A program made the translations under genes and the position numbers. Positions 1-37,359 of a stretch of DNA of 64,000 bases are shown piece after piece. Source of the stretch: a virus. Location of the stretch: the IMG/VR virus record IMGVR_UViG_3300050499_000294, positions 98-64,097 of that record, one strand, 5' to 3'. Each line of letters begins with the position of its first letter. The first letter of the stretch is position 1. The notes under the pieces are model-generated. The model was not told the DNA's origin, searched no databases, and saw nothing but the letters and a program-made list of their open reading frames with translations.

Positions 1-779
1 GGCTCACCCCGCTGGGAGTCCCGCATGACCTGACACACTTCCTGCCCAGATAACGCCCGATTGTAGAGTTTAATGTCATCCATGGCGCCGGGAAAATAGA
101 GCGACGGCGCTGCCACGTCTAACGTGCCCACCACGGTCGGCAGCGTGGTCACCGGGTACATCGTCCCCGAGGCCCCATTAAACGTGGTGGGGAGACAGTT
201 GGTATACCCTTGCAAGCCCGTGGCACTACTGTAGGTATAGGCCAGATGCGTCCAGACCCCCACAGGAATGGCGCCAGGATTGGCATTGTCTTGTTGCAGG
301 TAACTGGACGTCGACGTGACAAACGACACGTTCATGCCTCCACTGGATCGCACGATAATATCGCGGAATCCACTATTATTCCCCCCCGTCACGAGGCCTT
401 GATAGTCGTTGCCGGTGGCGGTCCGCTTCATCCACAAGAGGATACTGACGGCGGGGGGCCACAACTGCGCAGTGACCGGATGGGTGGCATAATCATTCGT
501 TCCGTCGAAGCGCATTTCGCCCTGCCCGCCAGGCCGCGTCGTCGCCCCCGCGCCACTACTCCCCGCCGTGTCGATATTGGTCACGGCTAGCGGGAAGCGC
601 CCGGTAAGATCGTACCAGGTGCGTCCCCCGCTCACGCCTGCGACCACGCGCCACCAAGCGAGGAGCCCCTGGGCGGTCGGCGCATTCCGGTCCAGCCGGG
701 GTTGCGCGAGCGCTGGCGTACTCAGCAGCGTTAGCAGCAGGAGCAGCGCTAGGGTATTTGTAACACGTACGGGGTGCAT
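1..779 (-). CDS. Exported LamG/concanavalin-A-like domain protein, runs off the left edge
   Basis: Not in the ORF track because it has no stop in the window. Manual translation: MHPVRVTNTLALLLLLTLLSTPALAQ...MRFDGTNDY...GVWTHLAYTY...YFPGAMDDIKLYNRALSGQEV, typical LamG motifs after a signal peptide. Confidence 0.75.
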   Translation of the reverse strand, partial: MHPVRVTNTLALLLLLTLLSTPALAQPRLDRNAPTAQGLLAWWRVVAGVSGGRTWYDLTGRFPLAVTNIDTAGSSGAGATTRPGGQGEMRFDGTNDYATHPVTAQLWPPAVSILLWMKRTATGNDYQGLVTGGNNSGFRDIIVRSSGGMNVSFVTSTSSYLQQDNANPGAIPVGVWTHLAYTYSSATGLQGYTNCLPTTFNGASGTMYPVTTLPTVVGTLDVAAPSLYFPGAMDDIKLYNRALSGQEVCQVMRDSQRGE

Positions 780-1249
780 CGTAAGGTCCATGGGGCGCCC
801 TGGAGGGTCACGCCCGTGCCGTCATTTTTGAGGAGAGCCTTGAACACCCCCCGCGGGAGTTCAATGCTCGGAATCACAATGCGCTGGGCCGTGCTAACCG
901 CGCGCAGGGGAAAGATGAAATCAGGGATCCTGGCTGGATCAGCGCCAGTAGTACCGTCTTCAAAATTGGTGCCGTCTGCTTGCCGAATGAGCCACACCAC
1001 GACCGCCGTATTGGCTGCCACAGTCCCACTCCAGGCCCCAGTACTCAGCTCACAATCTGCGCGGGTGTAGTTGGCACTTGCAAGCGTAATGTTGCCAGAA
1101 AGCACGCTGGAGCCACTCGCCAATCCGGTACTCGTGGTAATCCAGGTGTCGATCGTGCCCCGGAGCCACACGAAGGGGGACGCGGCCCAGAGCGGTGACA
1201 CCCAGAGCACAAGACTCAGGAAAAGGAGGGAAGCAAGACGTGTCCTCAT
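749..1249 (-). CDS. Exported hypothetical protein, paralog of the C-terminal part of 25583..26332
   Basis: Signal peptide MRTRLASLLFLSLVLWVSPLWA; ITLAS...VWLIRQADGTNFED resembles ITLAS...VYGVQALDDTPTWPD. Confidence 0.7.
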   Translation of the reverse strand: MRTRLASLLFLSLVLWVSPLWAASPFVWLRGTIDTWITTSTGLASGSSVLSGNITLASANYTRADCELSTGAWSGTVAANTAVVVWLIRQADGTNFEDGTTGADPARIPDFIFPLRAVSTAQRIVIPSIELPRGVFKALLKNDGTGVTLQGAPWTLRCTPYVLQIP

Positions 1250-1881
1250 GGCAGTGGCCCTCCTCGGAGCGCGTACCGGATATCGTGCTGCGTCAAGAAG
1301 CCTTCCCAGACAAGAAAGCCTGGATCCGCAGTCGTGCCGGCATTGGTTCCGGTGACATAGATTTTTTCTGCGCGGGTGACGGCGCGTGACGACTGCTGTT
1401 TAATGTGGTTGCGATTATTCGTGGCATTGCCCGGGAGTTTGAAAATCGCATCGAGGGCACTGTGGACATTGGGCAAACTCGCGTCCATCACCAGGCTCGG
1501 GCCATCAAAAAAGTCATGAAAAGTCATCAACTCCTGAACAGTCAAGGTCAAGTAGCCATTGCCCTCAAAGATAAAGCTCGTATTGGCAGGAGACTTCTCA
1601 AAAAGAATCGTCTTGCGCGTCACGGCCGTTTTGTAGACCTGGAACGTGGGCGTCACTGGTTGGTTGTACCTGTCCGCAATGACCTGATCCCGCCCGGCGG
1701 CGACATCGGCTTGATTCTCGTTCACGTCCGTCACCGTAATTTGGGTCTTCAGTTGCTGATACTGCGCCTCGGTGAGGGTCGTTGCTGCGCCGCCCCAGAC
1801 TACCCAAGGCACTAAGAGGAGCAGCCCGCACACCAGCGTTATGCACCATCCTGAGCTAAAAAGAGTTCTTTGAGTCGCCAT
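1246..1881 (-). CDS. Exported hypothetical protein, paralog of 26344..26862
   Basis: Hydrophobic N-terminus; TRAEKIYVTGTNAGTTADPGFLVWEGFLT aligns with SQAEKLLIVPSSGTGTTASPAVMGFQGNLT. Confidence 0.75.
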   Translation of the reverse strand: MATQRTLFSSGWCITLVCGLLLLVPWVVWGGAATTLTEAQYQQLKTQITVTDVNENQADVAAGRDQVIADRYNQPVTPTFQVYKTAVTRKTILFEKSPANTSFIFEGNGYLTLTVQELMTFHDFFDGPSLVMDASLPNVHSALDAIFKLPGNATNNRNHIKQQSSRAVTRAEKIYVTGTNAGTTADPGFLVWEGFLTQHDIRYALRGGPLP

Positions 1882-1893
1882 GCATACACTCCA

Positions 1894-2865
1894 TCAGTTC
1901 GTAGCAATCACCTGATGTTTGCCGTCCGCTTGCGAATAGGACAAACCAATATCAAACCAGCCCATCCCGGCAGCCGTGGCAGGACAGGTCATGGCGAGAG
2001 GAATATTGGGCGACGGCAAAAAGCCTGCTGTGCTCAGCGTCAAGGTCTGCGCGTTGGTGCATTTGAGACTAATACGCGTCAGCGTGCCATCCGTCACCGT
2101 GCCACTCACGGTAATGGTGAGCGTCCCCGCCGCCCCGGTCATGGTGTGCCGGCACAGGGCGGCGATCTGCGCATTGCAGTTCAGGCTGGTGGCCGTGCCT
2201 GTACTCGTGGTAATGCCGCGCCCAATGCCCCGCGTGGTGGCCACGGCCCCATACTTGGCGGAGACCGCATTGTAGAGCACTTTCACGCGATCCGTCGTGG
2301 TGCCGTCTCCGGTGGTGGCACTCGGGAGCGGAATGCCGTTTTCGGTGGTATAGATGGCGTGCCACGTGAGCGCCCGGGGCGTGGTCGACTTAAACCGAAA
2401 CGAGACCTCTTGCTCCTCGGTGGGATTGCCGCCCGTGCCGATGGGCGCGTTGATCGTGAGGTCCCCGGTAATGCCATCGACCACCACGACATCGGTCGTA
2501 TCCAGATTGGGCGTAATGGACAACGGCGTCCCCGCCGGCGTATACGCGACCGCCTTGGGAACGATTTGCTTATTCGTGACCTTTTGCGGGGCTGTGAGCA
2601 TGACCACATTGCTAATATCGAGGGCGAATGCGGTACAAATCGTCGTGCCATCGGGGCGCCAGCCGCTCACAAAGTTGTTGCTGCCGCAATTAGTGAGCGT
2701 GCCCGCCCGCAGCTTGTTCAGGCGCAGGTTGCTACTATGCATCCGACCGCCCAGTTGCTGCGCCTCGCTGAGGGCGAACGTGCCGCTAGTGAGCAGGAAG
2801 AGCAGACAGAGCAGGCATCGTCGCATCATGAACACTCCCATAGGACAATACGGCCTAAAACTCAC
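1894..2865 (-). CDS. Exported Thr/Gly-rich tail-fibre-like protein
   Basis: Signal peptide MMRRCLLCLLFLLTSGTFALSEA; beta-rich fibre-like repeats; six Cys in the mature part; true start may be slightly downstream. Confidence 0.7.
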   Translation of the reverse strand: MSFRPYCPMGVFMMRRCLLCLLFLLTSGTFALSEAQQLGGRMHSSNLRLNKLRAGTLTNCGSNNFVSGWRPDGTTICTAFALDISNVVMLTAPQKVTNKQIVPKAVAYTPAGTPLSITPNLDTTDVVVVDGITGDLTINAPIGTGGNPTEEQEVSFRFKSTTPRALTWHAIYTTENGIPLPSATTGDGTTTDRVKVLYNAVSAKYGAVATTRGIGRGITTSTGTATSLNCNAQIAALCRHTMTGAAGTLTITVSGTVTDGTLTRISLKCTNAQTLTLSTAGFLPSPNIPLAMTCPATAAGMGWFDIGLSYSQADGKHQVIATN

Positions 2866-3382
2866 CGCAGCTTACAATAAGATTAATCCGGGTGGCCGCC
2901 GTCAGCGCGATCGTATAGGTGGCCTGGAGCGTATCGCCGCTGGCCAGTTGGATATAGGGATTCCCGTCGCTATCGAGCGGCAAGCCCGGCCAGAGCGTCG
3001 GCGCCAACAGGTTGAGGGCGGGTGTCCCACTGGCAAAGCCTTGACTCACGAGCGTCTGAGCCGCCACCCCGCCGAACCGGATGCCGCCGCTCACGATTTG
3101 CACCGTCACGAGATGCGTCGTCGTCCCGTCATCCGTGGTGAGCCACATCGCATTACAGCGCGCCCCGTTCGTGCCCGCGGCATAGAGCGTTTTATAGGTC
3201 CCTGCCGTGTCGGTGCCCTGGAGAAATTGCACCTTGCCCACCGTGGGCGTCTGCATGAAGACCGGACTATTGGGCGTGACTGCCGCCCAGCTTGACCCCG
3301 CCAGGAAGGCCCCTAGCAGGGCCAGGAAGCCCATCACTCGTCGTCCGCGCATCCTAGAGTCCTCCCGCGTTGGCATGGGCAC
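2855..3382 (-). CDS. Exported hypothetical virion-like protein
   Basis: Signal peptide MRGRRVMGFLALLGAFLAGSSWA; coupled to neighbouring genes. Confidence 0.7.
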   Translation of the reverse strand: MPMPTREDSRMRGRRVMGFLALLGAFLAGSSWAAVTPNSPVFMQTPTVGKVQFLQGTDTAGTYKTLYAAGTNGARCNAMWLTTDDGTTTHLVTVQIVSGGIRFGGVAAQTLVSQGFASGTPALNLLAPTLWPGLPLDSDGNPYIQLASGDTLQATYTIALTAATRINLIVSCGEF

Positions 3383-3827
3383 TGAGGGCCGTCGTGGCGG
3401 TCACAAAGGCCGGGACGCCGCCGCCCCCGCCCCCCCCGCCGGCGCCACCCGGCCCGCCGCCCGTCAGTTGCATGTTGGTGCCGTCATAGCAGACCGTGAT
3501 GATCTGTCCATTCGCAATGTCATTCGCGGCCAGGTCCGTCGACACCGTCGACACAAACTTCCGCAGCGCCTTCACGCCCCGGGCATTGATATTGAGCGTC
3601 GCCGCGCCCGTCACGGTATGGTTGGCCTGAAACATAAAGCATTGATTGGTCACATAGGCCCCAATCGGCGGGTTGAGCGTCAGCACATAGGCATTGCCGC
3701 TCCCCGTGGCCGTCCCGGCGTTGATCGTGCCTGCTACGGTCAAGTTCGAGTTAAAAAACTGCCCTTGTGCCCAGGCGGGCGTGCTCCACAGGGCCATCAG
3801 GAGCAGGGGGATCCCCAGGCGTCTCAC
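3354..3827 (-). CDS. Exported protein carrying a tail-fibre-type domain
   Basis: Signal peptide MRRLGIPLLLMALWSTPAWA; AYVLTLNPPIGAY...ATLNINARGVKALRK...DLAANDIANGQIITVCYDGTNMQL resembles a common phage fibre module. Confidence 0.75.
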   Translation of the reverse strand: MRRLGIPLLLMALWSTPAWAQGQFFNSNLTVAGTINAGTATGSGNAYVLTLNPPIGAYVTNQCFMFQANHTVTGAATLNINARGVKALRKFVSTVSTDLAANDIANGQIITVCYDGTNMQLTGGGPGGAGGGGGGGGVPAFVTATTALSAHANAGGL

Positions 3828-5317
3828 GCAAGACCTCCTTTCTGGGCGAGGGCTTCGAGCACCGTCACACGCTCGGCCAATTGCTCTTTCTCCTGGCGCA
3901 CCGTCTCCAGGAGCTGATACACCGTTTTGAGCGCATTGAGGAGCAGGTACGGCAGGGCCTCGGTATCGAGCGCCAGGAGGTCCGTCTCCTCGCTGTTAGG
4001 CGTCAGCACGCCCCGGCGACTCGTCACCATATAGGGCGCCACAGCCTGCACGACTTGCGCCCGCAGGCCGATGTGCCGCTGGCGCGTAATCGGGATGCCG
4101 CCCTGGCCGTTATAGCGAAACCAGATCGGATCGAGCGCCAGGAGCACCTCAAGCCCCTCCACAAACGGCTCGATATCCTTTTTGAGCCGTTCGTCTGAGG
4201 GACTGAGCCAACTGCCGCCACCCGGTTTGGTCGCTGTGCCGGTAATCATCAAATTGCCGCTATTATCGGTCCGCTGCACGACCGTCCCGGTTTTGTTCAG
4301 GGTTTCCACGGCCTCGCCGCTGCCCATCTGGAGGAGGAGTGCACCGTCGTCACTTAAGACGCGCACGGCTGAGGCATTCGTGACGCCCGCGTCCCGGATT
4401 TCAAAATCGGTCCCGGTAATGGCGGTGGCTTTGACGATGATCAGCCGCCCGCTCGTGGGGGTTACGAAGGTCATGACCACGTCATGCGAATTCGGATCTA
4501 CTGTAATGCTGTTGGGCAGCAGGCTCTGGCGCGGACTCGCGTTGTCATAGACAGCAAAGAGCAACGCGGACGTCCCGAGCCCATGCGTGGCGCCGGGCAC
4601 GCTCACCGTCGTGGCACTGGCAAAGGTGGCCACAAACCGTGGGCCGGCCGCACTGACAATGATCGTGCCACTCGCAGGCGTGACAAAAGTGACTGTTACA
4701 TCCGCCGTCGCCGGGGCAATACTGACGGGCACCTGCGTCAGGATATTCTGGCTGCCGCTCACGGTATAGACGCGTACGAGGAGGTCTGCAGTCCCCAGGG
4801 CGTGCGTACTGCCGGGAATACTCACGGTCGTCTGATTGGTAAAGGACACCGTATATTGCGGACTCGGCGCCGCGAGACTGATGATCCCCGTTTGCGGCGT
4901 GAGGAAGGTAAACGTGGCATCATAGGTGAGCGTATCAATGGCTACGGTATTGGGCTGAATCACCTGGCGCGGGGTTTCCGCATTGTACGCCTGGAAAAGC
5001 GGTGCGGGCGTGCCGAGGCGATGCGTGGTCCCCGCAATGGTGACGCTCGTGGTGGCATTGAAGGTAAAAAAGAGCGGGCTCTCGCCACCCCCAGGGAGAA
5101 ACTGCTGGAGCCGCGCGGCGAGCGAGCCAAACGTGCCTTGCGGATTGGAGCCGAGGACCGTCTGGACCGCGACCATGGCCGCCAAGGCATCGTTGATGAC
5201 TTCCGAATCCAGGCGACTGGCACTATCGGGAGCCATCGGCGGCGCATTGATAAACGTCTGCCGTGTGTCGATGACTCCTGGGTAGCCAGTCCCGATTCCC
5301 GCGCCGAGTTGAGCCAC
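3824..5317 (-). CDS. Tail fibre with C-terminal peptidase S74 intramolecular chaperone
   Basis: SDERLKKDIEP...IWFRYN...HIGLRAQVVQAVAP...C-terminal coiled coil; three internal repeats of about 70 aa. Confidence 0.85.
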   Translation of the reverse strand: MAQLGAGIGTGYPGVIDTRQTFINAPPMAPDSASRLDSEVINDALAAMVAVQTVLGSNPQGTFGSLAARLQQFLPGGGESPLFFTFNATTSVTIAGTTHRLGTPAPLFQAYNAETPRQVIQPNTVAIDTLTYDATFTFLTPQTGIISLAAPSPQYTVSFTNQTTVSIPGSTHALGTADLLVRVYTVSGSQNILTQVPVSIAPATADVTVTFVTPASGTIIVSAAGPRFVATFASATTVSVPGATHGLGTSALLFAVYDNASPRQSLLPNSITVDPNSHDVVMTFVTPTSGRLIIVKATAITGTDFEIRDAGVTNASAVRVLSDDGALLLQMGSGEAVETLNKTGTVVQRTDNSGNLMITGTATKPGGGSWLSPSDERLKKDIEPFVEGLEVLLALDPIWFRYNGQGGIPITRQRHIGLRAQVVQAVAPYMVTSRRGVLTPNSEETDLLALDTEALPYLLLNALKTVYQLLETVRQEKEQLAERVTVLEALAQKGGLA

Positions 5318-5683: not shown

Positions 5684-8600
5684 CTAGCGCTGCCTCCGAA
5701 AGCCGACCATCTTGATATGATCGGCGCCGATGGAATTCCCGGCCACGCCTCCATTCTTAAACGTGCCCACAAAGGCTTTCGTCCCGCTAAAGCCACTGGG
5801 GGCGGTATAGACGCCCTGGCACACCATCGTACTGCGCCCCGGGTTATTCGTTTGGCCATACGCGAGTTCTGGCGACCCCGAAGCCGCGCTATTTTCCCGA
5901 ACGCGCAGCTCACACGCGTCGTCGAGCGTGGCCACGCTCACGGTGGCGGTGAGGGTCACCCAGACTTGATCGCCCTCGTTCAAATCAAACACAAGCGACG
6001 CCAGCGCCGTCTCACTGATCGTCACACTGAGCCCCACAATGTCCGTATACGACACGCTGTTGGTGACGGCGTTGACGTAGATCTTCTCCGTGACGACCGC
6101 GGACGGGGCAATGCCGGGCGTTTGCGCCCCGGTCTCCGGGCTCCACATGAGGGAGCCATCCGCGTGGTAAATCAGGATGCTATAGTTGGTCGGCCCTGCC
6201 GCAATCCGCCCAATCCAGACGCGAATCGTGCCGTTATCGTCCCGGAGAATGATCTGGCGATTGACGCCGTCAAGGACAATCGGGGCAATGGATCCGGCTA
6301 CCGGCCCCCCCAGGAACACCTGCGCGTTAATCGTGCCCGCAATGATTTTGTCAGCAGCCAGGTCCAGAATATGCGCATTGCGGATCAGCGCATCTTGGAT
6401 TTGAGCCACGCCCGTAATGACCGCCGTATCGGTGCGCAGATGCCCCGCATTAATGACCCCGGTTTTAATTCCGGCTGCCGTGACACCGCTCTCATTCGCG
6501 TCAAACATGAGGCCGCCGCCACTATTAAAAATCTGAATGCCGTACTGATCCGAGAGCGGCCCGAGCTTCCCCAAGAGGACGCGGTTATTGCCCAGGTACT
6601 GATCGCGGATGACCATCAGACTATTGGTGCCATCAATATAGACGCGATCCGCCACGCCAATACTGACCAGCGCCGTGAGCTTCCCGGTAAGGATTTTGGT
6701 CGCCACCAGGGAGCTAATGAAGGTGTCGTCCAGTTGCCCAGCGACGGCCGTCACCCCTGCCGTGGCCGAGACGGGGTGAAACGGCCCAATATTGCCCGAG
6801 GTATCTACTGGACGAATCCAATAATAGGCCCGCTGATTGGCGACAAACCCCGTATGTTCAAAGCTGTAGCTGCCTTGCCCAATCACCCCAGCCGTGCTGC
6901 GATCGTTGAGCCCCGACGTCCAGACCTCACAGTAGTCGTAATCCAGATCGCCCGGCGGCGTCCAGAGCAGCGCAATCTTTTGCACGGTGCCGACGGCATA
7001 GAGGTTCGCGGCGGCGCTCGGTGGCGTCCCATCGCGGCCCGTCGTAATGGACACCTCGGGATCGGTAAACGCACTGAGATTCGCCAGGCGATCAATCGCG
7101 GCAATTTTGGCAAAGACCGTCACATTGCCGGGGACAAAAATTTTGTAGGTACTATCAAACCGTCCCGGCTGCACGACGGTCGGGATGTTGGGTGATGCCA
7201 CCCGAAACACGAGTTGAAAGCCGTTGAGATCCTCTTCTCCCTGGGGGTTCCAGTGCGCCTGCACCCAGGTCATCACCGTCCCGTCCGCACTGGCATCCGT
7301 CCCCGTCGTAAGGCGGAGGCCGGTCGGCACGGCTGGTGGCGTATTGTCCAGTTTGTCGGCCGTGAGGGCCACGGGCGTAAAGGAGGCAATGGCACTCGGA
7401 ATGCCAATGCCAAACGAGTCATAGGGAATAATCTGGACATAATAGGTGATGCCCGCGAGCAGATCCGGAATGAGCAGCACCTGGAAATCAATGCCGACCG
7501 TCTGATTAGGGATCGTGGGCGGGTTCCCGGCATCGAGTAACACCAGGAAATGATCAAAATCCCGCGGGCGGATCCATTGTTTCCAATCAATCCGCACCGC
7601 CTCAAAGAGCGCCTGGGCTTCCGGTAAGATATTACTCATGTCGGGCGGCGCATTGGTCACGACGATCACCGCAGGATCGAGCGACAAGAGCCCGGTATTG
7701 GTGACTGCCCACACCATCACCTGGAGATCGCGTCGCGCCCCGGCGTAGCCGCTGCGAATCTGGTCTTCTTCGTTTTGCTGATGGGTATACGTCCACTGCA
7801 CGCTCTGGCCTGCGGGCGCCAGGGCCGCATTATAGGCCCGCAGCAAGTAGAGTTGCCCCGGCGCCCAGACTTGCACCACGTAGAAGGCCACAAAAAACGT
7901 CTCGCTAAAGAGCGGGCTATCCGCCACCGCATCCCACTCGACATGCAGGTCCCGGCCTTCCCACAGGGACACGCCCACGGCCTGGCCCTGGAGACGCAAG
8001 TTCCGCGGCGTCGCGGGGAAGTAGCCGGGCGTCGTGGGGCCGGCAATATGAATGACGACTTCCCGCGCACCGATATTATTGGGGACCCCCAGGTGCGAGA
8101 TGGGGACGACGCGGTACTGATACGTCGAGCCACTAATGGCCGTATAGTCATCCCAATCCAGCACATGCCCCCGGACCTGGGTGAGCGGCGTATAGTTATA
8201 GTTGGGGTCATTGGGGTCACTAATCGCTCCGGCGCCAATCGTCCCGGCCTCCACCTGCCCCATTTGCCCCGTCGCCAGGAGCACGCGGCGCAAGATCATG
8301 GCGCCCCCGTAGAGCGCATAGCCACTACTCAAGGGGGCGACGTCCCATGAGAGATTAATGACGCGCAGACTCGCGCCGCTCGTCTGAATCCGCGTCACTT
8401 CGGTTGCCACGAGCGAGAGGAGCGGCGGCGGCGGGCCTTCCGGGTTAAAGAGCGTCGTAATGACCCCCAGCGGCGACGCCACGGCCTCATCATAGATGCT
8501 CGGGTTGTGAATCAGCGCTTCGAGACTCACGGTCAAATCATTTTTGCGCCGCAGACTGGTCACCCGGAACGTGCGCGTATTGGCATTGGTGGCCAGCGTC

Positions 8601-10981
8601 CCAAACATGAACGTGGAGGTGCGCGGGACCGGAAAGAAACTGAGCTGCGCGGCCAGATGGAGCGTGCGCGTCGGGCCCAACGTGATGGTCAGGACCTCGC
8701 GGGCTTCGAGCGTATCGTCCTCATGACGCACGTACACGACATACGTGAGGTCCTGCTCAAAGAGGCAATCTTCATCGACGTGGAGGATGGCGGCATCGGA
8801 GCCTTGCTGGATGCGCCCGGACGTGCCCCAGCCCGGCAAGGGATGGGCAAAGCGAAAGAGATCATGCATCTGCAGCGGCAGCGCTTCCAGGGAACAGTCC
8901 ATCTCCAGGAGCACATTTTCAAAGCGCCGCCGATTGAGTTCATACTGGAGGGCGCGCATGACCCGGCTTGGCTTGGTCACGCCGCGCAAATCAAAGCTGT
9001 GCTTATGGACCTCAGGGGGCCAGTTGGCCAGCGTCGGCCAGGTAATGACGTCTTGCTCAAAGTCCTGATCTTCACTGGCAAAGCGCGCCTCCACGACGTT
9101 AATGGCGTCCACGTCCTGGATATAGGTGAGGCGCACATTCGTCACGGAGGTCCAGGAGAGGAGACACGTGGGCGTTTCGTCCCGCGTCGGGCGTGGTGTC
9201 CAGAGCCCGGCCGTTTTGAGGAGAATGCCGCGCGATCCGCCCATGGTTTCTAAGAAAAATTGCTGCGCCCGCGTTTCGCGGTCCAGCACGTAATTCAGCG
9301 TATGGCGCCGCTCACCCTGCATTTGCTGGTCACAATAGGCGGCGTAGAGGGCAAAGGCGGTGAGGTCCACCTCGCTATCTGGCACCCCCGTCCCATAGCG
9401 CCGATTGGTGAGCGCATCGAGCACACACCAGGCGGGGTTATCGGACCACGTTTCCGGGACCGCGAGGGAGCCCACGCGCACCTGACGCCCCCGCACCTCG
9501 ACCGTGATATTGGGTAAGGCCCCCCGCAAGGCATCGGTAGCCAGTGCGCGCAAGCCCAGCCAGGCCGTGTACGGATAGGCATACGTATCCGGGACGTATT
9601 CGGTCACACTTTCCAGGATACTCTTATACCGTGCCCGGAGTTCGTCCGTATTCCCCGCGCGGAGGTGCTGAATCTGAATATCGTAGGCTTGATACGGGAG
9701 CCCTTCGCGGCGGATCCCCAGGCGCACCGCCGCCGTGCGGTCGGCATTGACCTGAAAGGGCGTCCACGCGGACCAACTGCCCGTGCCGCGCGGCGCATAG
9801 CGATACTGGAGCACGGCATTATTGCTGTGCTTTTCGCCCTTGTCGTTGAGAAAATACAAGCCCTCGGGCCAGGCCAGGTTGAGGACAAAGGCATGCAACG
9901 CGGCGTTGGAGGTATAGGTGAGGGGGCTCTCGCCGATGTCGCGGCCGTCGGCAAACGTGTTGCGCGCCCCGCCAAACTCGGCAAAGGCCGGTTGATTGGC
10001 CGTGCCGAGGCCGGTATAGACCTGCACGCCCGGAAAGTTGGCCACGGGTTGGCCATTAATCTGAATCGTGTCCGTCAGGATGGCCTCAATCGGGCCTTCA
10101 CAGAGCCCGATCATGAGCGTCAGCGTGGGCGGATTGGTGATGGCCTGGTAGTTGCGCGAGCCCTGATTGTAGAGCATGGCCGTGCCGCCGCCCTGGTAAG
10201 GATGCGTGATACCCACGGCCCACGAGCTATCGAGGACAAACGTATCCGCATCGCCCACGTGAATCGCCCAGGTGGTATTTACTTCTGTTTTGCCTTGAAC
10301 GCCCTGGATCAACACAATCTGGCCCGTGACAAAGCCGTGATTGGGGGCGGTCACATACACAATGTCCGAGGGTTCCCCGTGCGTGACGTCACTAATCGTA
10401 GCGGTGTGGGCCGTGGTGCCATCGTCCACGACGACGGCGGCTTGATCGACAGTGGCCAGGAGGAGTTGCCCGCCAATGCGGTGGCGACCATACACGACCG
10501 GGACGACGGCGCCCGGCCCCACGGCGGTGCGAATCCCCTCAAAGCTAAAGGTGCGTTCGGCCTCGCCGCTCATCTGGTTTTGCTGCGGCAGCAGGAGCGG
10601 CTTCGGACGAAAGAGAAAATGGGACGCCGCCGAAACCGCGAGGCCGACCAGCAACGAGATACCAATCCCAATCAACGTCGCCGGTTCGCCCCACGTCGGC
10701 CAGAGCCAGAGTTCATCCCCGGCCTTCGGCACGTAGCGCGCGTAATGCTCAGGCAGGATCGTGGCCCCGTTCACGGTGACATGCCGCAAGTCTTCGCCCT
10801 CGGGCAGATAGGCATCGAGCGGATCGCCTGCCGGAAAGACCTCCCGCTGCACGCGCAAGTGTCCATCGGCGGCCCGCAGGGGCGACAGGACCAGGATACA
10901 GGTAACGGTGGCTACAGGAGCCGCCGCAACCGCGCAATCTGCATCAGGCGGGGCGCCCAACGCTTCGTCAACTCCATACAT
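5684..10981 (-). CDS. Tail tip/host-specificity protein (lambda gpI-gpJ-like fusion, FN3-like domains)
   Basis: 1765 aa; VPVVYGRHRIGG, GLCEGPI, WSDNPAWCVLDALTNRRYG motifs; position after the NlpC gene. Confidence 0.9.
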   Translation of the reverse strand: MYGVDEALGAPPDADCAVAAAPVATVTCILVLSPLRAADGHLRVQREVFPAGDPLDAYLPEGEDLRHVTVNGATILPEHYARYVPKAGDELWLWPTWGEPATLIGIGISLLVGLAVSAASHFLFRPKPLLLPQQNQMSGEAERTFSFEGIRTAVGPGAVVPVVYGRHRIGGQLLLATVDQAAVVVDDGTTAHTATISDVTHGEPSDIVYVTAPNHGFVTGQIVLIQGVQGKTEVNTTWAIHVGDADTFVLDSSWAVGITHPYQGGGTAMLYNQGSRNYQAITNPPTLTLMIGLCEGPIEAILTDTIQINGQPVANFPGVQVYTGLGTANQPAFAEFGGARNTFADGRDIGESPLTYTSNAALHAFVLNLAWPEGLYFLNDKGEKHSNNAVLQYRYAPRGTGSWSAWTPFQVNADRTAAVRLGIRREGLPYQAYDIQIQHLRAGNTDELRARYKSILESVTEYVPDTYAYPYTAWLGLRALATDALRGALPNITVEVRGRQVRVGSLAVPETWSDNPAWCVLDALTNRRYGTGVPDSEVDLTAFALYAAYCDQQMQGERRHTLNYVLDRETRAQQFFLETMGGSRGILLKTAGLWTPRPTRDETPTCLLSWTSVTNVRLTYIQDVDAINVVEARFASEDQDFEQDVITWPTLANWPPEVHKHSFDLRGVTKPSRVMRALQYELNRRRFENVLLEMDCSLEALPLQMHDLFRFAHPLPGWGTSGRIQQGSDAAILHVDEDCLFEQDLTYVVYVRHEDDTLEAREVLTITLGPTRTLHLAAQLSFFPVPRTSTFMFGTLATNANTRTFRVTSLRRKNDLTVSLEALIHNPSIYDEAVASPLGVITTLFNPEGPPPPLLSLVATEVTRIQTSGASLRVINLSWDVAPLSSGYALYGGAMILRRVLLATGQMGQVEAGTIGAGAISDPNDPNYNYTPLTQVRGHVLDWDDYTAISGSTYQYRVVPISHLGVPNNIGAREVVIHIAGPTTPGYFPATPRNLRLQGQAVGVSLWEGRDLHVEWDAVADSPLFSETFFVAFYVVQVWAPGQLYLLRAYNAALAPAGQSVQWTYTHQQNEEDQIRSGYAGARRDLQVMVWAVTNTGLLSLDPAVIVVTNAPPDMSNILPEAQALFEAVRIDWKQWIRPRDFDHFLVLLDAGNPPTIPNQTVGIDFQVLLIPDLLAGITYYVQIIPYDSFGIGIPSAIASFTPVALTADKLDNTPPAVPTGLRLTTGTDASADGTVMTWVQAHWNPQGEEDLNGFQLVFRVASPNIPTVVQPGRFDSTYKIFVPGNVTVFAKIAAIDRLANLSAFTDPEVSITTGRDGTPPSAAANLYAVGTVQKIALLWTPPGDLDYDYCEVWTSGLNDRSTAGVIGQGSYSFEHTGFVANQRAYYWIRPVDTSGNIGPFHPVSATAGVTAVAGQLDDTFISSLVATKILTGKLTALVSIGVADRVYIDGTNSLMVIRDQYLGNNRVLLGKLGPLSDQYGIQIFNSGGGLMFDANESGVTAAGIKTGVINAGHLRTDTAVITGVAQIQDALIRNAHILDLAADKIIAGTINAQVFLGGPVAGSIAPIVLDGVNRQIILRDDNGTIRVWIGRIAAGPTNYSILIYHADGSLMWSPETGAQTPGIAPSAVVTEKIYVNAVTNSVSYTDIVGLSVTISETALASLVFDLNEGDQVWVTLTATVSVATLDDACELRVRENSAASGSPELAYGQTNNPGRSTMVCQGVYTAPSGFSGTKAFVGTFKNGGVAGNSIGADHIKMVGFRRQR

Positions 10982-21546: not shown

Positions 21547-24500
21547 TCACCTCAAATCAGGATCGCGCGGGGACGCGGTACGCCGGAGAGTGCCGGCCTG
21601 CCCGTCCCCGCGCCGCAATGTTGGGCTGGTACCGGGGCTGGTACGCATGAGCGTGCCTGCCGTCTGGCTGCGCGTCAACGTGGCGGTCGTCGCTTGCCCC
21701 GTCCGTTGCAGCAGGGCGCCTGTGCCCATGAGGAGCAGGGGCATGTCGAGCATCGTGGCCCGCGCATTCGGCGTCGCACTACTCCCGCTGAGCGCACTGA
21801 GGAGCGCCCGCAGGCTCGTCTGAGTACTCAGCGGCGTGAGACTCACGGCGAGGAAAGCTGCGGCCAGATCGCGTAGTAGAGAGGCGGACGCGAGCGGCGT
21901 CTGACTGGCGAGGGCGAGCGTTGCCTGGAGGAAGCGGACGTAGGCCGCACTCGTCGGCGGCGTGAGACTCGCCGCGGCGAGGAAGGCCGTCAAACGCCGG
22001 AGGCTCACGGCCTGGGCAAGGGGCGTCTGGCTCGGGCCACTGAGGAACGCCTGGAGCCGTCGCACCAGTTGCCGGGCACTCACCGGCGTCGTACTGGTCC
22101 CGAGGAGACCCGCCTGGAAGGTCACACGCTTGGCCAGGATCGCGGCCGGGGTGGTACTGGTCCCCACGGCGATCACCCGCAACGCCCGGATCTGCCGGAG
22201 CACCGTGGCAGGCGTGGCACTACTCGGGGCAACTTGTGCCGTGAGGCGACGCCCCATCTGCCGCGCACTGGCGGGCGTCGTACTCGCCCCAAGGAGACTC
22301 GCCGTGAGGGAACGCACCCCGGCCTGTGCCGCCGTGGCGGGGGGCGTGACGCTCGCGGCAATGAGCACTGTACTGAGGCGTCTGGTCAGCGTGCGCGCAA
22401 CCGCAGGCGTCGTACTGGCGAGAGCGAGGTTCGTACTCAGGCGCCGTGCCAGGGAGCGGGCACTGGCCGGGGTCGTACTCGTTGCCGCCAGCGTCGCCGT
22501 GAGGGAGCGCACGGCACCCATGCTGGCGGTGGCCGTGGGCGTCTGGCTCGCCCCCAGGACCGCTGCCGTCAGCCGTCGCGCGAGTGTCCGGGCGCTGGCT
22601 AGCGTGAGACTGCTGGGCGCGAGCTGTGCCACGAGATGCCGGAGCGTGCCCATGGTCGCGGTCGCGGCGGGAGTCGTACTGGCCCCGCTGAGCGTTGCCT
22701 GGAGGCGGCGCGTGAACGTTGTCTGGCTGGCGGACGTGGTACTAGCGCCCAGCACTGCAGTCGTCAGCCGTCGCATCACCGTCCGCGCTGTCGTGGGCGT
22801 GGTACTCGTGCCACTGAGCGCGGCGCTGAGAGAGCGTACGGCGGTCACGGAGGCTTGGGCGGGTGGGGTGGTACTGGCTCCGGGCAGGGCAGCCGCAAAG
22901 CGATGCAGGACCGTCACCGCGCTCGTGGACGTCGTACTGGTCACAGGAAGCCCCGCGGCGAGGCGCCGTGTCACCGTGCGCGCACTCGCCGGGGTCGTGC
23001 TCTGGCCGCTGAGAACCGCCGTCAGACGCCGCAGGGTGAGCACAAGAGCCGTGGCACTGGGCGTCGTACTGGCCGCAGGCAGCGCGGCCTGGAGACGGCG
23101 TACGCTCGTCTGCGCACTGGTAGGTGTGGCGCTACTGCCAGGAAGGACACCCGTGAGGCGCCGGACCGTGGTGGGCCGGGCAGCGGCGGGGGTGGTACTC
23201 GCCCCGGCGAGCGTCGTCGTCAGGCGTCGCGTGAGCGTCCGGGCGGCAACGGGGGTGGTGCTGGCCCCGGCGAGTTGGCCGGTCAGGCGCCGCGTCAGCG
23301 TGCGCGCACTGACGGGCGTGGTACTGGTTCCAGCCAGCGCCGCCGTGAGCCGCCGCGTAGTCAGCAGCGTGGCCGTCGCTGCAGGGGTGGTACTACTGCC
23401 GAGCGCCGCCGCACTGAGGCGCCGCGTCACGGTCCGGGCACTTGTCGGGGTCGTACTCGTCCCCACCAGGTTCGCGGCAAAATGGGCGCCGGGGGGCGCC
23501 GGCGGCTGATACTGGAGAAACAGCACCGTGACATAGGGCGGCAGCATATCCGCCACGCTGTCCAGCGTCGGCGTGGTGGCGCCCGAGGTGGGAGCGGTCG
23601 AACCTGTATTGGGCCAGGTATGGGTATGCGTATCAGGCGGCGCGTTGGTGGCGCCAACGGTCCGCGCTTCCGAGGCACCCACCCCACCCGTCACCGTATG
23701 CACATGCGCGGCAATCGCGTGCGTATGCCCCGTCGCCGTGTGTCCATGGCTCGCGGTCGAGCCGCCACTACCGCCAATGGCGGCGACGGTAGAGGCACCT
23801 TTGACAAAGAGGCTGCGCAGGTCGGGAGTGCTGTTCGTGCCGTCACACAATACCCAATCTGTAGGAATCGTGGCGACTGTGCCGAGCCAGAGAGCGATAA
23901 TGCCGCTGGTCTTTTGCAGCGCGCCACTGACGTTTTGGAGATAGGCGAGGAGCCAGTACGGCGGCTCCGGGATACTGGCGCTGGTGGTACTATCCGTTTG
24001 CGCCGTCACGACTGGCGCAGGCGTACTGAAGGTAAGGGCGTGTGTGTGCGTGGCCGTCGCCACATTGGCCGTGGCCCCGCCGATGCTGCCGGTAGTGAGG
24101 GCTTCCGTGCGCTGACTACTGGTCACGCCGGGATGCGTATGGCTATACGTGCCGCCGTGACTGTGACTGGCAATGGTATGCGCATGGGTCGTGGCGCCGC
24201 CGCCCGTCCCGCCCGGTGCCCCGGCCGCCGGTGCCCCTTTGAGAAACGTTCCCCGGTAGTCCGGTCGTCCCCCGGCGCCATCACACAGGGACCAGTTAGC
24301 GGGCGCTCCGGCACTATCCGCCCACAGGCCAATGGTGGAGGCCGGAAAGCCATGAGTCACACCCTGGGACATGAGAAAGAGGGTTTCGACATACGCCGGC
24401 TCATGGTTCACCGTATCCGTACTGGGCGCCTCGGTCGTGAGCGTCGTCACGGGGTTGGGCGCGGCGGGATTCGAGCCGTGCGTATGCACCATAGGCGGGT

Positions 24501-25563
24501 TCGTGGTGCCCGTATCGCGCGTTGAGGGTGTCCCTCCCGTCCCCGTCGTATTGGGCGTCGTATGGGTATGCGCCGTGGTGTGGTCATGGGTCGTCGTGGG
24601 ATGCGTATGCGTGGCGCTCCCGCCCGTGGCACCCCCATTGGCACTCGCCGCGGCGCCCCGTGGATAGCGGCCATCAAGGGCGGTGGCGCGTGTCCACCCG
24701 GCAGGAATACTGGCGACGCTGCCGCTCCAGAGGACCGTAATCCCGGTAGCGATGGCGTCAGGATCGACGGGGACGGATATCCCGACAGGGACGACATGCA
24801 GCGGCGCGCGCCAGCGCAACTCCTGCGGATAGCGGAGGCAGGAGTCGCGGTAGAGGCGCCGCACCTCACTCGCACTCAAGGCCCGATTGTAGAGGCGGCA
24901 ATCGTCGAGTTGCCCTGGCAGATAAATATTGTTATAGCCACGCCCGAGCCACACGGTCCCGCTCACGGAGCCGGTCGCGGTACTGGCGATGCTCCCCCCC
25001 AGGACGCCATTCTTATAGATACTCAGCGTGCTACTGTCATGCGTCAGGGTGAGATAGGTCCAGGCCCCGACCGTATAGGGCACGCCAATGTGGGTATCTG
25101 AGCCCGTCCAGTTAAACGCCCACAGGCGGTCGTCCCCGGTCAGACTGGTGCGGTAGAGGCCAAAATACCCGGCATTCTCGGCGACAATGCCTTGCCCAAA
25201 ATAGACAGAGCTAATGGAGGGCGCCGTTCCCAGCGGCAAGACCCAGAGACTGACCGTGGCGGCCGTGGGGGTAATGTAGGTGGCCAGCGTTCCGGGGACG
25301 GCCAGGTGATCGTCCGTCCCATCAAAGCGCAGCGCGGCCCACCCGCCCGGACGTGTCGAGGCACCCCACCCGCTCGTGGCGGTCGAGGCACTCATGCCCG
25401 TCAAAGTGGCCGGAAGACGCTTCGCCAGATCGACCAGGCGCCGGCCCCCCACGCGCTTGGGGAGGAGCAACCACCAGGCCGTGAGCCCACGGTTCAGCGG
25501 TGCCTCCCAGGCGATGGGCTGGCCATAGTCCAGGCTGCGGGGACCCAGCAGATGCAGCGGCAT
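21547..25563 (-). CDS. Large tail appendage protein: LamG domain + three tail-collar-like modules + long repeat region
   Basis: LRFDGTDD...LDDCRLYNRALS; IPAGW, NWSLCDG...PDYRGTFLKGA, DWVLCDG...PDLRSLFVKGA; many RRLxAxLxGxSTTP repeats. Confidence 0.8.
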   Translation of the reverse strand: MPLHLLGPRSLDYGQPIAWEAPLNRGLTAWWLLLPKRVGGRRLVDLAKRLPATLTGMSASTATSGWGASTRPGGWAALRFDGTDDHLAVPGTLATYITPTAATVSLWVLPLGTAPSISSVYFGQGIVAENAGYFGLYRTSLTGDDRLWAFNWTGSDTHIGVPYTVGAWTYLTLTHDSSTLSIYKNGVLGGSIASTATGSVSGTVWLGRGYNNIYLPGQLDDCRLYNRALSASEVRRLYRDSCLRYPQELRWRAPLHVVPVGISVPVDPDAIATGITVLWSGSVASIPAGWTRATALDGRYPRGAAASANGGATGGSATHTHPTTTHDHTTAHTHTTPNTTGTGGTPSTRDTGTTNPPMVHTHGSNPAAPNPVTTLTTEAPSTDTVNHEPAYVETLFLMSQGVTHGFPASTIGLWADSAGAPANWSLCDGAGGRPDYRGTFLKGAPAAGAPGGTGGGATTHAHTIASHSHGGTYSHTHPGVTSSQRTEALTTGSIGGATANVATATHTHALTFSTPAPVVTAQTDSTTSASIPEPPYWLLAYLQNVSGALQKTSGIIALWLGTVATIPTDWVLCDGTNSTPDLRSLFVKGASTVAAIGGSGGSTASHGHTATGHTHAIAAHVHTVTGGVGASEARTVGATNAPPDTHTHTWPNTGSTAPTSGATTPTLDSVADMLPPYVTVLFLQYQPPAPPGAHFAANLVGTSTTPTSARTVTRRLSAAALGSSTTPAATATLLTTRRLTAALAGTSTTPVSARTLTRRLTGQLAGASTTPVAARTLTRRLTTTLAGASTTPAAARPTTVRRLTGVLPGSSATPTSAQTSVRRLQAALPAASTTPSATALVLTLRRLTAVLSGQSTTPASARTVTRRLAAGLPVTSTTSTSAVTVLHRFAAALPGASTTPPAQASVTAVRSLSAALSGTSTTPTTARTVMRRLTTAVLGASTTSASQTTFTRRLQATLSGASTTPAATATMGTLRHLVAQLAPSSLTLASARTLARRLTAAVLGASQTPTATASMGAVRSLTATLAATSTTPASARSLARRLSTNLALASTTPAVARTLTRRLSTVLIAASVTPPATAAQAGVRSLTASLLGASTTPASARQMGRRLTAQVAPSSATPATVLRQIRALRVIAVGTSTTPAAILAKRVTFQAGLLGTSTTPVSARQLVRRLQAFLSGPSQTPLAQAVSLRRLTAFLAAASLTPPTSAAYVRFLQATLALASQTPLASASLLRDLAAAFLAVSLTPLSTQTSLRALLSALSGSSATPNARATMLDMPLLLMGTGALLQRTGQATTATLTRSQTAGTLMRTSPGTSPTLRRGDGQAGTLRRTASPRDPDLR
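21760..23480 (-). repeat. More than 20 tandem repeats of about 21-23 aa (RRLTAALAGTSTTPASARTLT)
   Basis: Visible in the translation and as recurring gtcgtactg/gtggtactg in the DNA; boundaries approximate. Confidence 0.8.
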
Positions 25564-25582: not shown

Positions 25583-26332
25583 TCAGATGGCGGTCAGATA
25601 GGCCCCGATATAGGCGAGACTATGCAGCGAGCCAGTGGCGTGCAGGTTCTGGCCGGTATTATGCGACACGAAAACACTGAAGCGTTTGGGGACAAAGCCA
25701 AAGGCTTCCGCGAGGGTCAAAGTCCGGATGGGATAGTCCACGGCCGTGGACGCGCTCACGGCAGTGACCCCGAGGAGGATGAAGGCACTATCGAGGATGT
25801 AGGCATTGGTGACGGTGCACCCGGCATCGCTGCCCGTCATGGTGTCGGGCCAGGTCGGGGTATCGTCCAGGGCCTGCACGCCATAGACGCGGATTTCGGT
25901 ATCCACCGTCGGGGCGGAGGTGCCGGTAGTAATGGCCACAGTGATACGCCCGTCAATATAGAGATCCGAGGTATTGACGATGGCCGCCGATTCCCGTCCG
26001 ATCAGAAAGGTGGCGGAGGTAGCGAGCGAGGCGAGCGTAATCGTCAGCGGGGTCGAGGCCGCGTAGGCAATTTTGACGTTGGCGTTCTCTTTCAAGGCCA
26101 ACCACCAGGGGGCCTCGCCGGTCTGCTGGTAGGGCCGGTCATCGAAGTGTGGTGGTAGGCGCCGAGCAGGGGAAAGAAATTCAAAGTCGTGCCCCCGGTG
26201 CTTGACCTCCCACTCCCAGAGTTCCGCCGTAAAGTCCTGGAGCGTACGCCCGAGACGATGCCGGTGCTGGCAGGTCCAGCAGTACGCATCGAGGTCGAGC
26301 CGCACGCGGGCGTCTGGGGCACTAGGCGTCAT
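25583..26332 (-). CDS. Tail-associated protein with N-terminal CxxC..H motif; signal-less paralog of 749..1249
   Basis: YCWTCQHRH...KHRGH, then ITLASLA... domain. Confidence 0.65.
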   Translation of the reverse strand: MTPSAPDARVRLDLDAYCWTCQHRHRLGRTLQDFTAELWEWEVKHRGHDFEFLSPARRLPPHFDDRPYQQTGEAPWWLALKENANVKIAYAASTPLTITLASLATSATFLIGRESAAIVNTSDLYIDGRITVAITTGTSAPTVDTEIRVYGVQALDDTPTWPDTMTGSDAGCTVTNAYILDSAFILLGVTAVSASTAVDYPIRTLTLAEAFGFVPKRFSVFVSHNTGQNLHATGSLHSLAYIGAYLTAI

Positions 26333-26343: not shown

Positions 26344-26862
26344 CTAGGGAATGGCCCAGGCTTGTTCCACATCACTCCCGGTGAGGTTGCCCTGAAAGCC
26401 CATGACGGCAGGACTGGCCGTGGTGCCCGTACCACTGCTGGGGACGATGAGGAGCTTTTCGGCCTGCGAGGCTTTCTCGCGGCCCAGGGCGAGAAGAAAA
26501 TTGACCTGGGTCTGCGAGGCGCCCTGCCCGCCAAAAATGGCCTGCCAGCCGGCACGGGTTTGCGCCAGCGACGGATTGACGACCCCTGGATTAAACATGC
26601 GCGCCCAGGCATCCCGGTCTTGCACCGTTTGCGCCTTGTAGGTGGCCCAGTTCCACAGGGTATCGTCAGGGGAGGTCGCTTCGTACACCTCTTGTTCCGC
26701 CAGTGCCGTGCGCCAGACCCAGAAATCGGGCGATGCCACCTGGTTATAGCCAGCCGCAATCGTATAGGCGTTTTCGCCCGTGTGCGCCAGGGATCCATAC
26801 ACCGGATGCGCGGCAATGTCGGCTTTGAGGAGCGTCAACTGCTGGGTGGTCAGTGGCACCAA
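26344..26862 (-). CDS. Tail-associated protein; signal-less paralog of 1246..1881
   Basis: Shared LTxxQxxxLK...I, AEK..V..GTGTTASP...G.LT..D motifs. Confidence 0.75.
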   Translation of the reverse strand: MVPLTTQQLTLLKADIAAHPVYGSLAHTGENAYTIAAGYNQVASPDFWVWRTALAEQEVYEATSPDDTLWNWATYKAQTVQDRDAWARMFNPGVVNPSLAQTRAGWQAIFGGQGASQTQVNFLLALGREKASQAEKLLIVPSSGTGTTASPAVMGFQGNLTGSDVEQAWAIP

Positions 26863-27022
26863 TCTATCCTTCTCATGGCGGCGTGTGCTACACTACGCCC
26901 GCCCTCGCGCCAGAGTGGGAGCCAGGCGCGTCCTCGCGGGGCCCCCGGATACGATGACGTCCGCGCAAGCCCTCCAACGGTGCGACCAGGACGACCGCAG
27001 CGACAACCACAGCCCGAGGGTC

Positions 27023-27862
27023 CTACGTCATTGACACGTCAAAAGCCCCTATATCAAACTGAACTGTGTCAGATGCGTTTACAGTTTGATCGACAATCGA
27101 GGCATTATCATACCCAATAATATTCCCGGCTCCACTCGCGCTATCGATAATAAAGCAGCTCGTAATGGTGCCCCACGTCGCCGTCGGCGTCGTAAACGTG
27201 ATGGCGGCGACATTATCGAGCGCGCCGCCGCTGGCGTTGGTCCAGGTCGGCGCCGCCCCGCCGTTGATATTGACAAGTTTGCGGCTGTACCCGGTGGCCG
27301 CGGTGCTCACCTCCGTCACGTTCGCCTCGGTCGCCGCAGTATCGGCAATCGTCGCCGTCGCTAGGCCGATGTACGTGGCCGGCTTCGTATACGCCTGGTT
27401 ACGAAACATGCGATTCAGGAGCAGGTGCACACAGACATCGACAAAGCCCGCGCCTGATGAGGCGTTGAATTGGACCTGGAGTTCACCGCTGGGAATCGTG
27501 GGCGTATTCCCCGTGACCGGCGCAAAGGAGGCCGTAAACGAGCCATACGCCAGGACATTGCCCGCGCCATGCGTGTTGGTATCGACAATGGCCCAGTCCG
27601 TCACGGTGCCCCAGGCGCCCGAGGCCTGCGGAAAGGTCACGGCGCCGCTCTGAATGACGCGGCGGGTGGCGGCGGCGCCAAAGGTCACGGCCGTGCGCGC
27701 ATACCCGTTGGCATTGGTGACTTCGCTCATGCTCGCACCCGTGGACGTGTCGGTCAGCGTGCCGGTCGAGAGCGCCACATACACGGTCGCAACACTAGTA
27801 TAAGCAGTATTAAATATATGGTTCAATAAGGCATTTTCGGCATAGTCTGATAAGGACCCCAT
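27023..27862 (-). CDS. Tail protein made of two tandem copies of one domain
   Basis: LLNHIF...YVAL...EVT..GYAR...ITFP...WGTVT...D...GN.L occurs twice. Confidence 0.75.
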   Translation of the reverse strand: MGSLSDYAENALLNHIFNTAYTSVATVYVALSTGTLTDTSTGASMSEVTNANGYARTAVTFGAAATRRVIQSGAVTFPQASGAWGTVTDWAIVDTNTHGAGNVLAYGSFTASFAPVTGNTPTIPSGELQVQFNASSGAGFVDVCVHLLLNRMFRNQAYTKPATYIGLATATIADTAATEANVTEVSTAATGYSRKLVNINGGAAPTWTNASGGALDNVAAITFTTPTATWGTITSCFIIDSASGAGNIIGYDNASIVDQTVNASDTVQFDIGAFDVSMT

Positions 27863-37340: not shown

Positions 37341-37359
37341 CAGACTCCTTTCGTCCGGG

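Follow-up and report, generated by a model that had tools for sequence, protein, structure and literature searches.

Export signals on a run of tail-fibre-like proteins encoded behind the S74 fibre gene of a rhizosphere phage element

The DNA analysed here was a 64,000-nt window (the whole stretch, positions 98 to 64,097), part of the 64,380-nt virus record IMGVR_UViG_3300050499_000294, and at its left end six co-oriented minus-strand genes, P1 to P6, lay downstream of an S74-type tail fibre gene, every one of them encoding a protein with a Sec-type signal peptide. Textbook tailed-phage assembly is entirely cytoplasmic, and this locus raises two questions: are the products of these tail-fibre-like genes truly exported, and where would they act? 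A first-pass annotation had proposed an exported, disulfide-bonded appendage set with four possible uses (receptor decoys, superinfection blockers, lysogen surface adhesins, or fibre parts added to virions after lysis); export and disulfide bonding proved well supported by the comparison of homologs, and the uses are weighed below as possible roles.

Signal peptides and cysteines of the run

Signals were called by a strict rule, i.e., a net-positive N-terminus, at least 10 uncharged residues with a mean Kyte-Doolittle value of at least 2.0, and small residues at -3/-1. This rule marked eight of the 69 open reading frames (ORFs) of at least 80 aa in the record, six of these eight made up the P1 to P6 run, and a permutation test gave a probability of 2e-5 for a run of six or more. 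All six N-termini displayed by rule the Sec/signal peptidase I (SPase I) pattern of a positive region, a Leu-rich core, and small residues at -3 and -1, and no lipobox Cys was present in any of the six. Homologs had K or a single R in place of the twin arginines of P1 to P3, so these signals were assigned to Sec and not to Tat. Identical metagenome contigs added two further genes beyond the edge of the record, encoding a beta-helix protein (819 aa) and a GH9 glucanase (620 aa), both with signals judged by eye, giving eight consecutive signal-bearing genes.

The six genes were confirmed on the minus strand where they had first been placed, and two starts were corrected by Shine-Dalgarno sites, that of P2 from 3382 to 3352 and that of P3 from 2865 to 2829 (Table 1). 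P6 was 295 aa at full length, 96 nt (its last 32 residues) lying left of the window and its stop codon being bases 1-3 of the record. A recount of mature Cys residues (two in P1, two in P2, six in P3, none in P4, two in P5, and two in P6) agreed with the earlier counts, and the LamG protein P6 kept its two at full length. The start of P1 and the S74 stop overlapped by 4 nt, an AGGAGG site lay 6 nt before this start, and stops and starts overlapped or abutted along the run. Promoter-like and terminator-like sites in the run did not exceed shuffled-sequence counts, and its third-position GC content (GC3) was 0.66-0.80, the same as in the tail genes, with no GC shift; the run would thus be co-expressed late with the tail genes, and it lacked the own promoter and terminator and the unlike composition of a moron.

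The first-pass annotation had left the conservation of the signals to a search of homologs, and there the pattern was kept while its sequence drifted. Relatives at 53-87% identity retained the gene order GpJ, small ORF, S74, and signal genes, and every ortholog in them (of P5, P1, P3, and P4, in L009 to L012) carried a signal of differing sequence. In the P2 family, 113 of 118 full-length matches passed the strict rule, pairwise identity was 31% in the signal versus 66% in the mature part, and the mature N-terminus AVTPNS began immediately after the AxA motif.

Cys content followed the signal in four families: (i) in alignment A1 of P5, the 11 relatives with a signal kept both C66 and C158, while five distant homologs (143-148 aa) began at the mature N-terminus and had no Cys in the C66/C158 columns; (ii) the signal-less LamG paralog in the same genome had no Cys at the two P6 positions; (iii) among 139 P3 homologs, median Cys content was 1.76% with a hydrophobic N-terminus versus 0.35% without it (p = 3e-13); and (iv) fibres with the P1 domain contained 1.31% Cys with a signal-like N-terminus versus 0.42% without it. 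Such p-values were inflated by shared ancestry, and the direction was the same in all four families (P5, LamG, P3, and P1).

Could the hydrophobic N-termini be start artefacts, or membrane tethers on cytoplasmic fibre parts, rather than export signals? Distant homologs of P5, P4, P2, and P1/P3 without the segment would fit such an explanation, but we regard it as very improbable: Shine-Dalgarno sites put the starts of P1 to P5 ahead of the hydrophobic segment (P6 had no clear site), the charge/core/AxA pattern was kept over hundreds of homologs with the mature N-terminus conserved right after the cleavage site, and the Cys enrichment tracked the segment. Homologs starting downstream of the segment, a finding that would tell against export, were only distant and Cys-free ones, so the gain of a signal in one branch fitted better than a wrong start call.

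The position of the signal relative to the P1 domain was equally regular: in 34 fibres beginning with a hydrophobic segment it started at about residue 33, and in 47 fibres lacking one, at about residue 125. The signal-less fibres had an ordinary fibre N-terminus preceding the P1 domain, while in the signal-bearing ones this domain followed directly after the signal and no particle-anchoring N-terminal region was present. The signal presumably occupies the place of the N-terminal region, the anchor, of the cytoplasmic relatives, so the exported versions would not be built into the tail in the cytoplasm. A spanin-like gene pair found beyond the cassette (see below) indicated a host with an outer membrane, hence a periplasm. 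Judged from these comparisons, the proteins very probably fold outside the cytoplasm, and we hold export to the periplasm of a diderm host with oxidative folding there to be highly likely.

Predicted cleavage very often left Gln at +1, as in P1 and P6 (window positions 3768 and 704) and in many P3-/P1-type fibres (..A↓QGQLING..). This pattern resembles the pyroglutamate 'Q rule' of Bacteroidetes SPase I substrates. Despite the +1 Gln, neither the type of the conjugative secretion system described below nor the GC content pointed to Bacteroidetes.

Table 1. Coordinates of the signal-bearing genes and of the signal-less fibre and tail genes in the 64,000-nt window
Feature	Coordinates	Strand	Size	Particulars
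P1	3354..3827	-	157 aa	GTG start; predicted cleavage AWA↓QGQ; signal, beta-rich fibre N-domain (~21-121), poly-Gly linker, 20-residue C-terminal tail
P2	2855..3352	-	165 aa	ATG 3352 fixed by GGGAGGA site; predicted cleavage WAA↓VTPNS
P3	1894..2829	-	311 aa	ATG 2829; predicted cleavage ALS↓EAQQ
P4	1246..1881	-	211 aa	predicted cleavage near WG↓GAATT
P5	749..1249	-	166 aa	predicted cleavage LWA↓ASPF
P6 (LamG)	1..791	-		start 791 or 779; predicted cleavage ALA↓QPR
Ordinary tail fibre	3824..5317	-	497 aa	C-terminal S74 intramolecular chaperone; PF13884 E 5e-12; phrog_1980 tail fibre
GpJ-like tail tip	5684..10981	-	1765 aa	no signal; PF24801 FNIII-A_GpJ; ~25% identity to Rhizobium phage J proteins
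Signal-less LamG protein	21547..25563	-	1338 aa	N-terminal LamG domain, P6 paralog
ORF 25583-26332	25583-26332		249 aa	part of internal cassette
Signal-less P4 paralog	26344..26862	-		BLAST-type similarity to P4; part of internal cassette
Gp80-like 'fiber I' domain protein	27023-27862			Gp80 fibre domain E 3e-48; part of internal cassette

Fibre modules and glycan-active enzymes

P1 matched phrog_28171 (E 2e-7), and its residues 1-121 were 43-63% identical to the signal plus N-domain of fibres of 487-1206 aa with a P3-like C-terminus; P1 and P3 were thus fused in relatives. The P1-type domain was also found in Collar- or S74-bearing fibres, and one relative, P0335, combined a hydrophobic signal-like N-terminus and a P1 domain with precomputed Pfam matches PF12708 and PF13884 (S74). 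Sequence searches of the Protein Data Bank with P1 and with the P3 and P5 profiles gave nothing real, P1 matching only single-chain antibody fragment (scFv) linkers through its poly-Gly stretch.

P3 consisted of a signal and a two-domain tail-fibre distal tip, four of its six Cys being nearly invariant. At E < 1e-3 it matched 720 representative proteins, aligning to the C-terminal end of fibres of up to 1858 aa. Its AlphaFold2 (AF2) model (predicted local distance difference test [pLDDT] score 85) matched in Foldseek the phage Mu fibre-Tfa complex 6o38 (E 4e-7), the N-terminus of CBA120 TSP4, and many BFVD tail fibres (E 1e-11). A complex prediction for mature P3 with mature P1 scored 0.00, which counts neither for nor against binding.

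P2 was composed of a signal and a jelly-roll with an invariant Cys pair (C66 and C162), and its homologs made up at least 388 clusters at E <= 0.01. Its AF2 model (pLDDT 90.8) had the phage KHP40 cement protein as best fold match (Z 9.3), followed by a phage 7-7-1 fibre tip and Ena pili; compared with Tfa/gp38, the fold was not alike, the jelly-roll being nearest to phage cement proteins. By position P2 looked like a fibre partner, lying directly after a fibre gene with a conserved C-terminus: in four lineages, the gene directly upstream of a P2-like gene ended, as P1 did, in a common tail of about 20 residues finishing GG[L/I]. On the strength of this shared tail, P2 probably serves the fibre C-terminus as a partner, either cap or chaperone. 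Elsewhere, P2-like genes occurred in fibre or lysis regions of phages, where three to six signal-bearing proteins, the large ones mostly Cys-rich, were encoded one after another ahead of lysozyme genes.

P4, P5, and P6 formed the second half of the run. P4 was a signal plus a virus-only domain; its residues 33-206 matched viral proteins of 156-182 aa (Atlas structural neighbours), and it was 30% identical (E 6e-14) to the signal-less product of ORF 26344-26862. In P5 the signal was followed by a beta-rich domain, which had one Cys pair (C66 and C158), and the alignment of P5 with P2 was limited to the signal region. P6 was a signal plus a LamG_3 lectin-like domain (PF13385, E 2e-19), 34% identical (E 2e-25) to the N-terminal LamG of the protein encoded by ORF 21547-25563. 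The order P4, P5, P6 was that of a cassette without signals (143, 145, 268, and 751 aa), which closed the structural module of another phage, and P4-P5-LamG is read, by order and homology, as an exported copy of a fibre (spike) cassette.

The signal-less paralogs of P4 and P6 belonged to an internal fibre cassette of the window itself (26344-27862 and 21547-25563), placed between head-completion and tail genes, and this cassette probably forms neck or head fibres. A pairing of P5 with ORF 25583-26332 of this cassette was unsupported, BLAST finding nothing and hhalign giving a probability of 5%. P6 and its L022 ortholog ended in a conserved FFPFF, and a signal-less L021 homolog had FRPYF 13 residues before its end.

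The two proteins encoded beyond the edge were of a different kind. In the 819-aa protein the beta-helix fold began right after the signal and included a choice-of-anchor Q domain, and the 620-aa protein gave a full-length GH9 match (E 2e-60) with a CelD_N domain; both enzymes were typical of bacterial secretomes and had no particle-binding domain. A GH9 cellulase is unusual in a phage genome, and we know of no description of GH9 cellulases or signal-bearing beta-helix enzymes as phage products. The element encoded four signal-bearing glycan-active proteins (L001:11357-15689 and L018:16183-18378), the other two being a Pel9A-like beta-helix (347 aa) and a protein of 368 aa, for which a faint Beta_helix match was precomputed and whose start lay at the right end of the record; two further signal-bearing beta-helix genes lay far from the tail genes.

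The GH9 gene was followed by a reversed KilA-N gene and then by a lysis-like trio at L018:92-1007 (= L001:16613-17528): (i) a 171-aa i-spanin-like protein with an N-terminal transmembrane (TM) segment, a coiled coil, and a Pro-rich end; (ii) a 73-aa lipoprotein with an LSSGC lipobox; and (iii) a 52-aa two-TM protein, whose L022 homolog had DUF3309. The same trio came after the cassette in L022, which had a Baseplate_J backbone, and at least the i-spanin-like first gene did so in L012, while a lysozyme gene lay downstream of the cassette in L023, L024, and L026. No endolysin was recognised in the element, and nothing supported the GH9 or the beta-helix protein as a hidden endolysin.

Phage and conjugative parts of the element

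The 5-47 kb part of the window contained an ORF in terminase position (no family match), a portal, a Mu-F-like head protein, a capsid protein, an SLT-domain tape measure, an NlpC/P60 protein, the GpJ-like tip, and the S74 fibre, which had neither a signal nor a single Cys. With a GpJ-like tip upstream, the signal cassette is the last part of a tail operon of siphovirus type. Known phages gave zero matches to 12 kb in Megablast, and the nearest portals were only about 33% identical, so there was no close cultured phage. The same DNA was present in at least seven rhizosphere metagenome runs, each with at least 80% of the sampled words.

A 52-kb ENA contig bridged the right end of the record to its left end through 23,409 nt at 99.98-100% identity. 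Given this single contig connecting both ends, the whole element is phage and conjugative element in one, an 87.8-kb circle or permuted genome of which the viral record is a cut-out; an 87,512-nt contig was consistent with this size. The bridging stretch (L014:12663-21098, L018:1-18378, and L002:4215-13369) encoded an MPF-T-like type IV secretion system (T4SS) with VirB4, VirB6, VirB8, VirB9, VirB10, and a pilin-like ORF, together with a VirD4-like coupling protein, a TraF-type S26 peptidase, and a MobA/MobL relaxase. VirB4 was about 32% identical to IncP-type TrbE. The S26 peptidase was rejected as a dedicated processing enzyme of the cassette, being of the TraF pilin-processing type, with none found within 4.4 kb downstream in L022.

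This arrangement brings up the explanation that the signal-bearing genes are plasmid cargo of the adjoining conjugative module and no phage genes at all. The cut end of the virus record coincided exactly with a gene boundary, the LamG stop, the T4SS began about 5 kb beyond it, and signal-bearing beta-helix genes also stood on the far side of the T4SS. Yet P1 overlapped the S74 stop codon, the cassette came after GpJ and S74 in relatives and after Baseplate_J-type tail genes in L022, no T4SS gene was found within 4.4 kb downstream in L022, and P2-like genes kept to phage regions; we give this explanation hardly any credence.

A host search gave one genome match, a metagenome-assembled genome of Chthonomonadaceae with a P5 homolog at 41% identity, and a P2-like gene was absent from this genome and from 301 sampled genomes of its phylum. 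In L026, a P2-bearing relative, a small ORF (L026:14147-14437) ended in a PEP-CTERM signal (VPEP, a hydrophobic stretch, and RKGRK), which suggests an exosortase-bearing host. Elsewhere in the window, a HerA/Zot-like ATPase (575 aa) and an N6/N4 DNA methylase (398 aa) at 34507-37430 made up a lower-GC insert in the head module; outside the tail region, two more signal-like N-termini belonged to ORFs 38996-39520 (+) and 51170-51565 (+), the former adjoined by a gene at 39646-39978 (-) for a membrane protein matching the low-affinity iron permease family (PF04120, E 4e-21).

Possible roles and known systems

The reading that we favour, with a probability of about 0.4, is a free glycan-binding and -cutting kit released at lysis. 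Each product would be led by its cleavable Sec/SPase I signal into the periplasm of a two-membrane host, where its Cys pairs would be oxidised; the downstream spanin-/holin-like genes would then release the products along with the progeny, and the resulting disulfide-hardened kit of lectin-like binders, beta-helix enzyme, and cellulase would bind and cut host surface polysaccharides around the lysing cell, which might ease release and spread and stop progeny sticking to debris. It was the two enzymes and the lysis-like genes beyond the edge that shifted weight to action on surface glycans at or after lysis, and the secretome type of both enzymes, the two additional signal-bearing beta-helix genes away from the tail genes, and the exported fibres without an N-terminal region were counted in its favour. 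Several points weigh against it: mature Cys numbers were odd in the beta-helix protein (15) and the GH9 protein (5); none of the RNA runs searched for the locus had it; no way through the outer membrane was evident, which would confine any action before lysis to the periplasm; fibres that are long and combine a conserved N-domain with variable tips are hard to understand as free molecules; and the exported cassette has kept both P4 and P5, which suggests an appendage put together from its parts and not loose enzymes.

A second reading is that of virion parts matured in the periplasm. The exported fibres and the LamG/spike complex would be oxidised there and would dock on finished particles, e.g., on the S74 fibre, when holin and spanins mix the compartments at lysis, giving the virion a second, oxidised receptor-binding set. 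All the modules were of virion type, the genes were in side-fibre position and translationally coupled to the S74 fibre, and in close relatives with the same backbone S74 was directly followed by two long fibres with signals (905/976 aa and 487/511 aa); the N-domain was conserved and the tips variable, as in anchored fibres, and a whole multi-gene cassette and a fibre-partner pair had been relocated together. Fibreless T4 particles, moreover, take up fibres in vitro. On the other side, the signal-bearing fibres lacked the N-terminal stretch found ahead of the P1 domain in cytoplasmic fibres, a particle-binding domain was missing from both the beta-helix and the GH9 protein, signal-less GpJ, S74, and 1338-aa LamG fibres were already present, the signal run of L025 came after regulators and not after tail genes, and text searches found no such assembly route in print. 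Docking on virions is rated unlikely; if true, it would give disulfide-hardened receptor-binding proteins impossible in a reducing cytoplasm, part of the host-recognition apparatus being made in another compartment.

Display on the cell surface, in the manner of the mosaic adhesive trimer (MAT) fibres of Bdellovibrio, is less probable still. Held on the envelope of infected or lysogenic cells, the fibres would serve as adhesins, as masks of superinfection receptors, or as a mating aid for the conjugative part. Their layout of signal, conserved beta-rich N-domain, and variable tips was MAT-like, P0335 adding an S74 end to a signal-like N-terminus, the P1 domain, and PF12708; a full conjugative T4SS lay beside the cassette, and the domain of the beta-helix protein is typical of surface-anchored bacterial proteins. 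Against display stood the coupling to the late tail operon without an own promoter or GC shift, the lysis genes directly after the cassette, the lack of any lipobox, recognised outer-membrane/sorting domain, or beta-barrel, and the lack of a T4SS gene within those 4.4 kb of L022 as well as in the examined stretches of L027 and of a 42-kb contig. A lysogen adhesin or moron was the least favoured of the four uses first listed because of the translational coupling to the tail operon and the missing own promoter and terminator.

Text searches of the literature found no paper on Sec signals on tailed-phage fibre sets. New here were (i) a siphovirus-type case with a core tail (GpJ and S74) without signals, (ii) signal-less P4 and LamG paralogs in the same genome, (iii) a signal replacing the fibre N-terminal region, (iv) the pairing of the fibre tail with P2, and (v) the attached enzymes. 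The alternatives are that the adsorption apparatus of some phages is partly built outside the cytoplasm, or that secretion of lectins and enzymes derived from fibres, with remodelling of the host surface as its purpose, is routine among phages; the set was large and widespread, with the P2 clusters counted above and hundreds of P3-/P1-type fibres with signals. On either reading, a 'tail fibre' match in metagenomes would not imply a virion protein, and such sets would offer glycan binders and depolymerases that are disulfide-stabilised by nature; bacterial adhesins of the MAT type may have evolved from them.

The comparison with fibre-Tfa pairs of Mu and lambda (6o38) concerned P1 to P3: as in these, a small conserved gene (P2) directly followed a fibre gene, P3 folded like the Mu tip, and the fibre C-terminal tail was conserved in four lineages, but here both partners had signals and Cys pairs and P2 was a jelly-roll without the Tfa/gp38 fold. 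T4-type gp37 with gp38 is a further pair of fibre and downstream partner. Exported products encoded beside receptor-binding genes and acting on the host envelope are known from T5 Llp, phi80/N15 Cor, and lambda Lom and Bor, each of which is a small lipoprotein or an outer-membrane barrel encoded singly, in many cases under a promoter of its own. The present genes resembled them in carrying export signals beside fibre genes and differed in being eight coupled genes without a lipobox, composed of virion fibre modules and glycan-active enzymes. Known free phage depolymerases are cytoplasmic tailspikes released at lysis, and Lys44 of Oenococcus phage fOg44 is a Sec-exported endolysin working outside the cytoplasm; both resemble the present set as late phage enzymes acting outside the cytoplasm, Lys44 by way of the host Sec system.

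The nearest systems in print were the MAT fibres (PMC10769870) and the signal genes of Porphyromonas phages (PMC10367356). All 21 MAT fibres of Bdellovibrio bacteriovorus have a conserved beta-rich domain directly after the signal, and some of them have an S74 chaperone at their end (Caulton et al. 2024, PMC10769870). The likeness was one of layout, shared by the signal-bearing fibres and by the S74 end of P0335; MATs are chromosomal genes of a predator shown on its surface, whereas the genes here were phage late genes followed by lysis genes, with the fibre split into separate signal-bearing pieces (P1 and P3). In Porphyromonas phages, SPase I signals with Gln at +1 occur on genes whose function is unknown and whose products were interpreted as modifying the envelope (Matrishin et al. 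2023, PMC10367356). P1 and P6 likewise exposed a +1 Gln, but that report names no fibre or tail modules among those genes and reports no consecutive run, whereas here six such genes followed one another directly behind a tail fibre.

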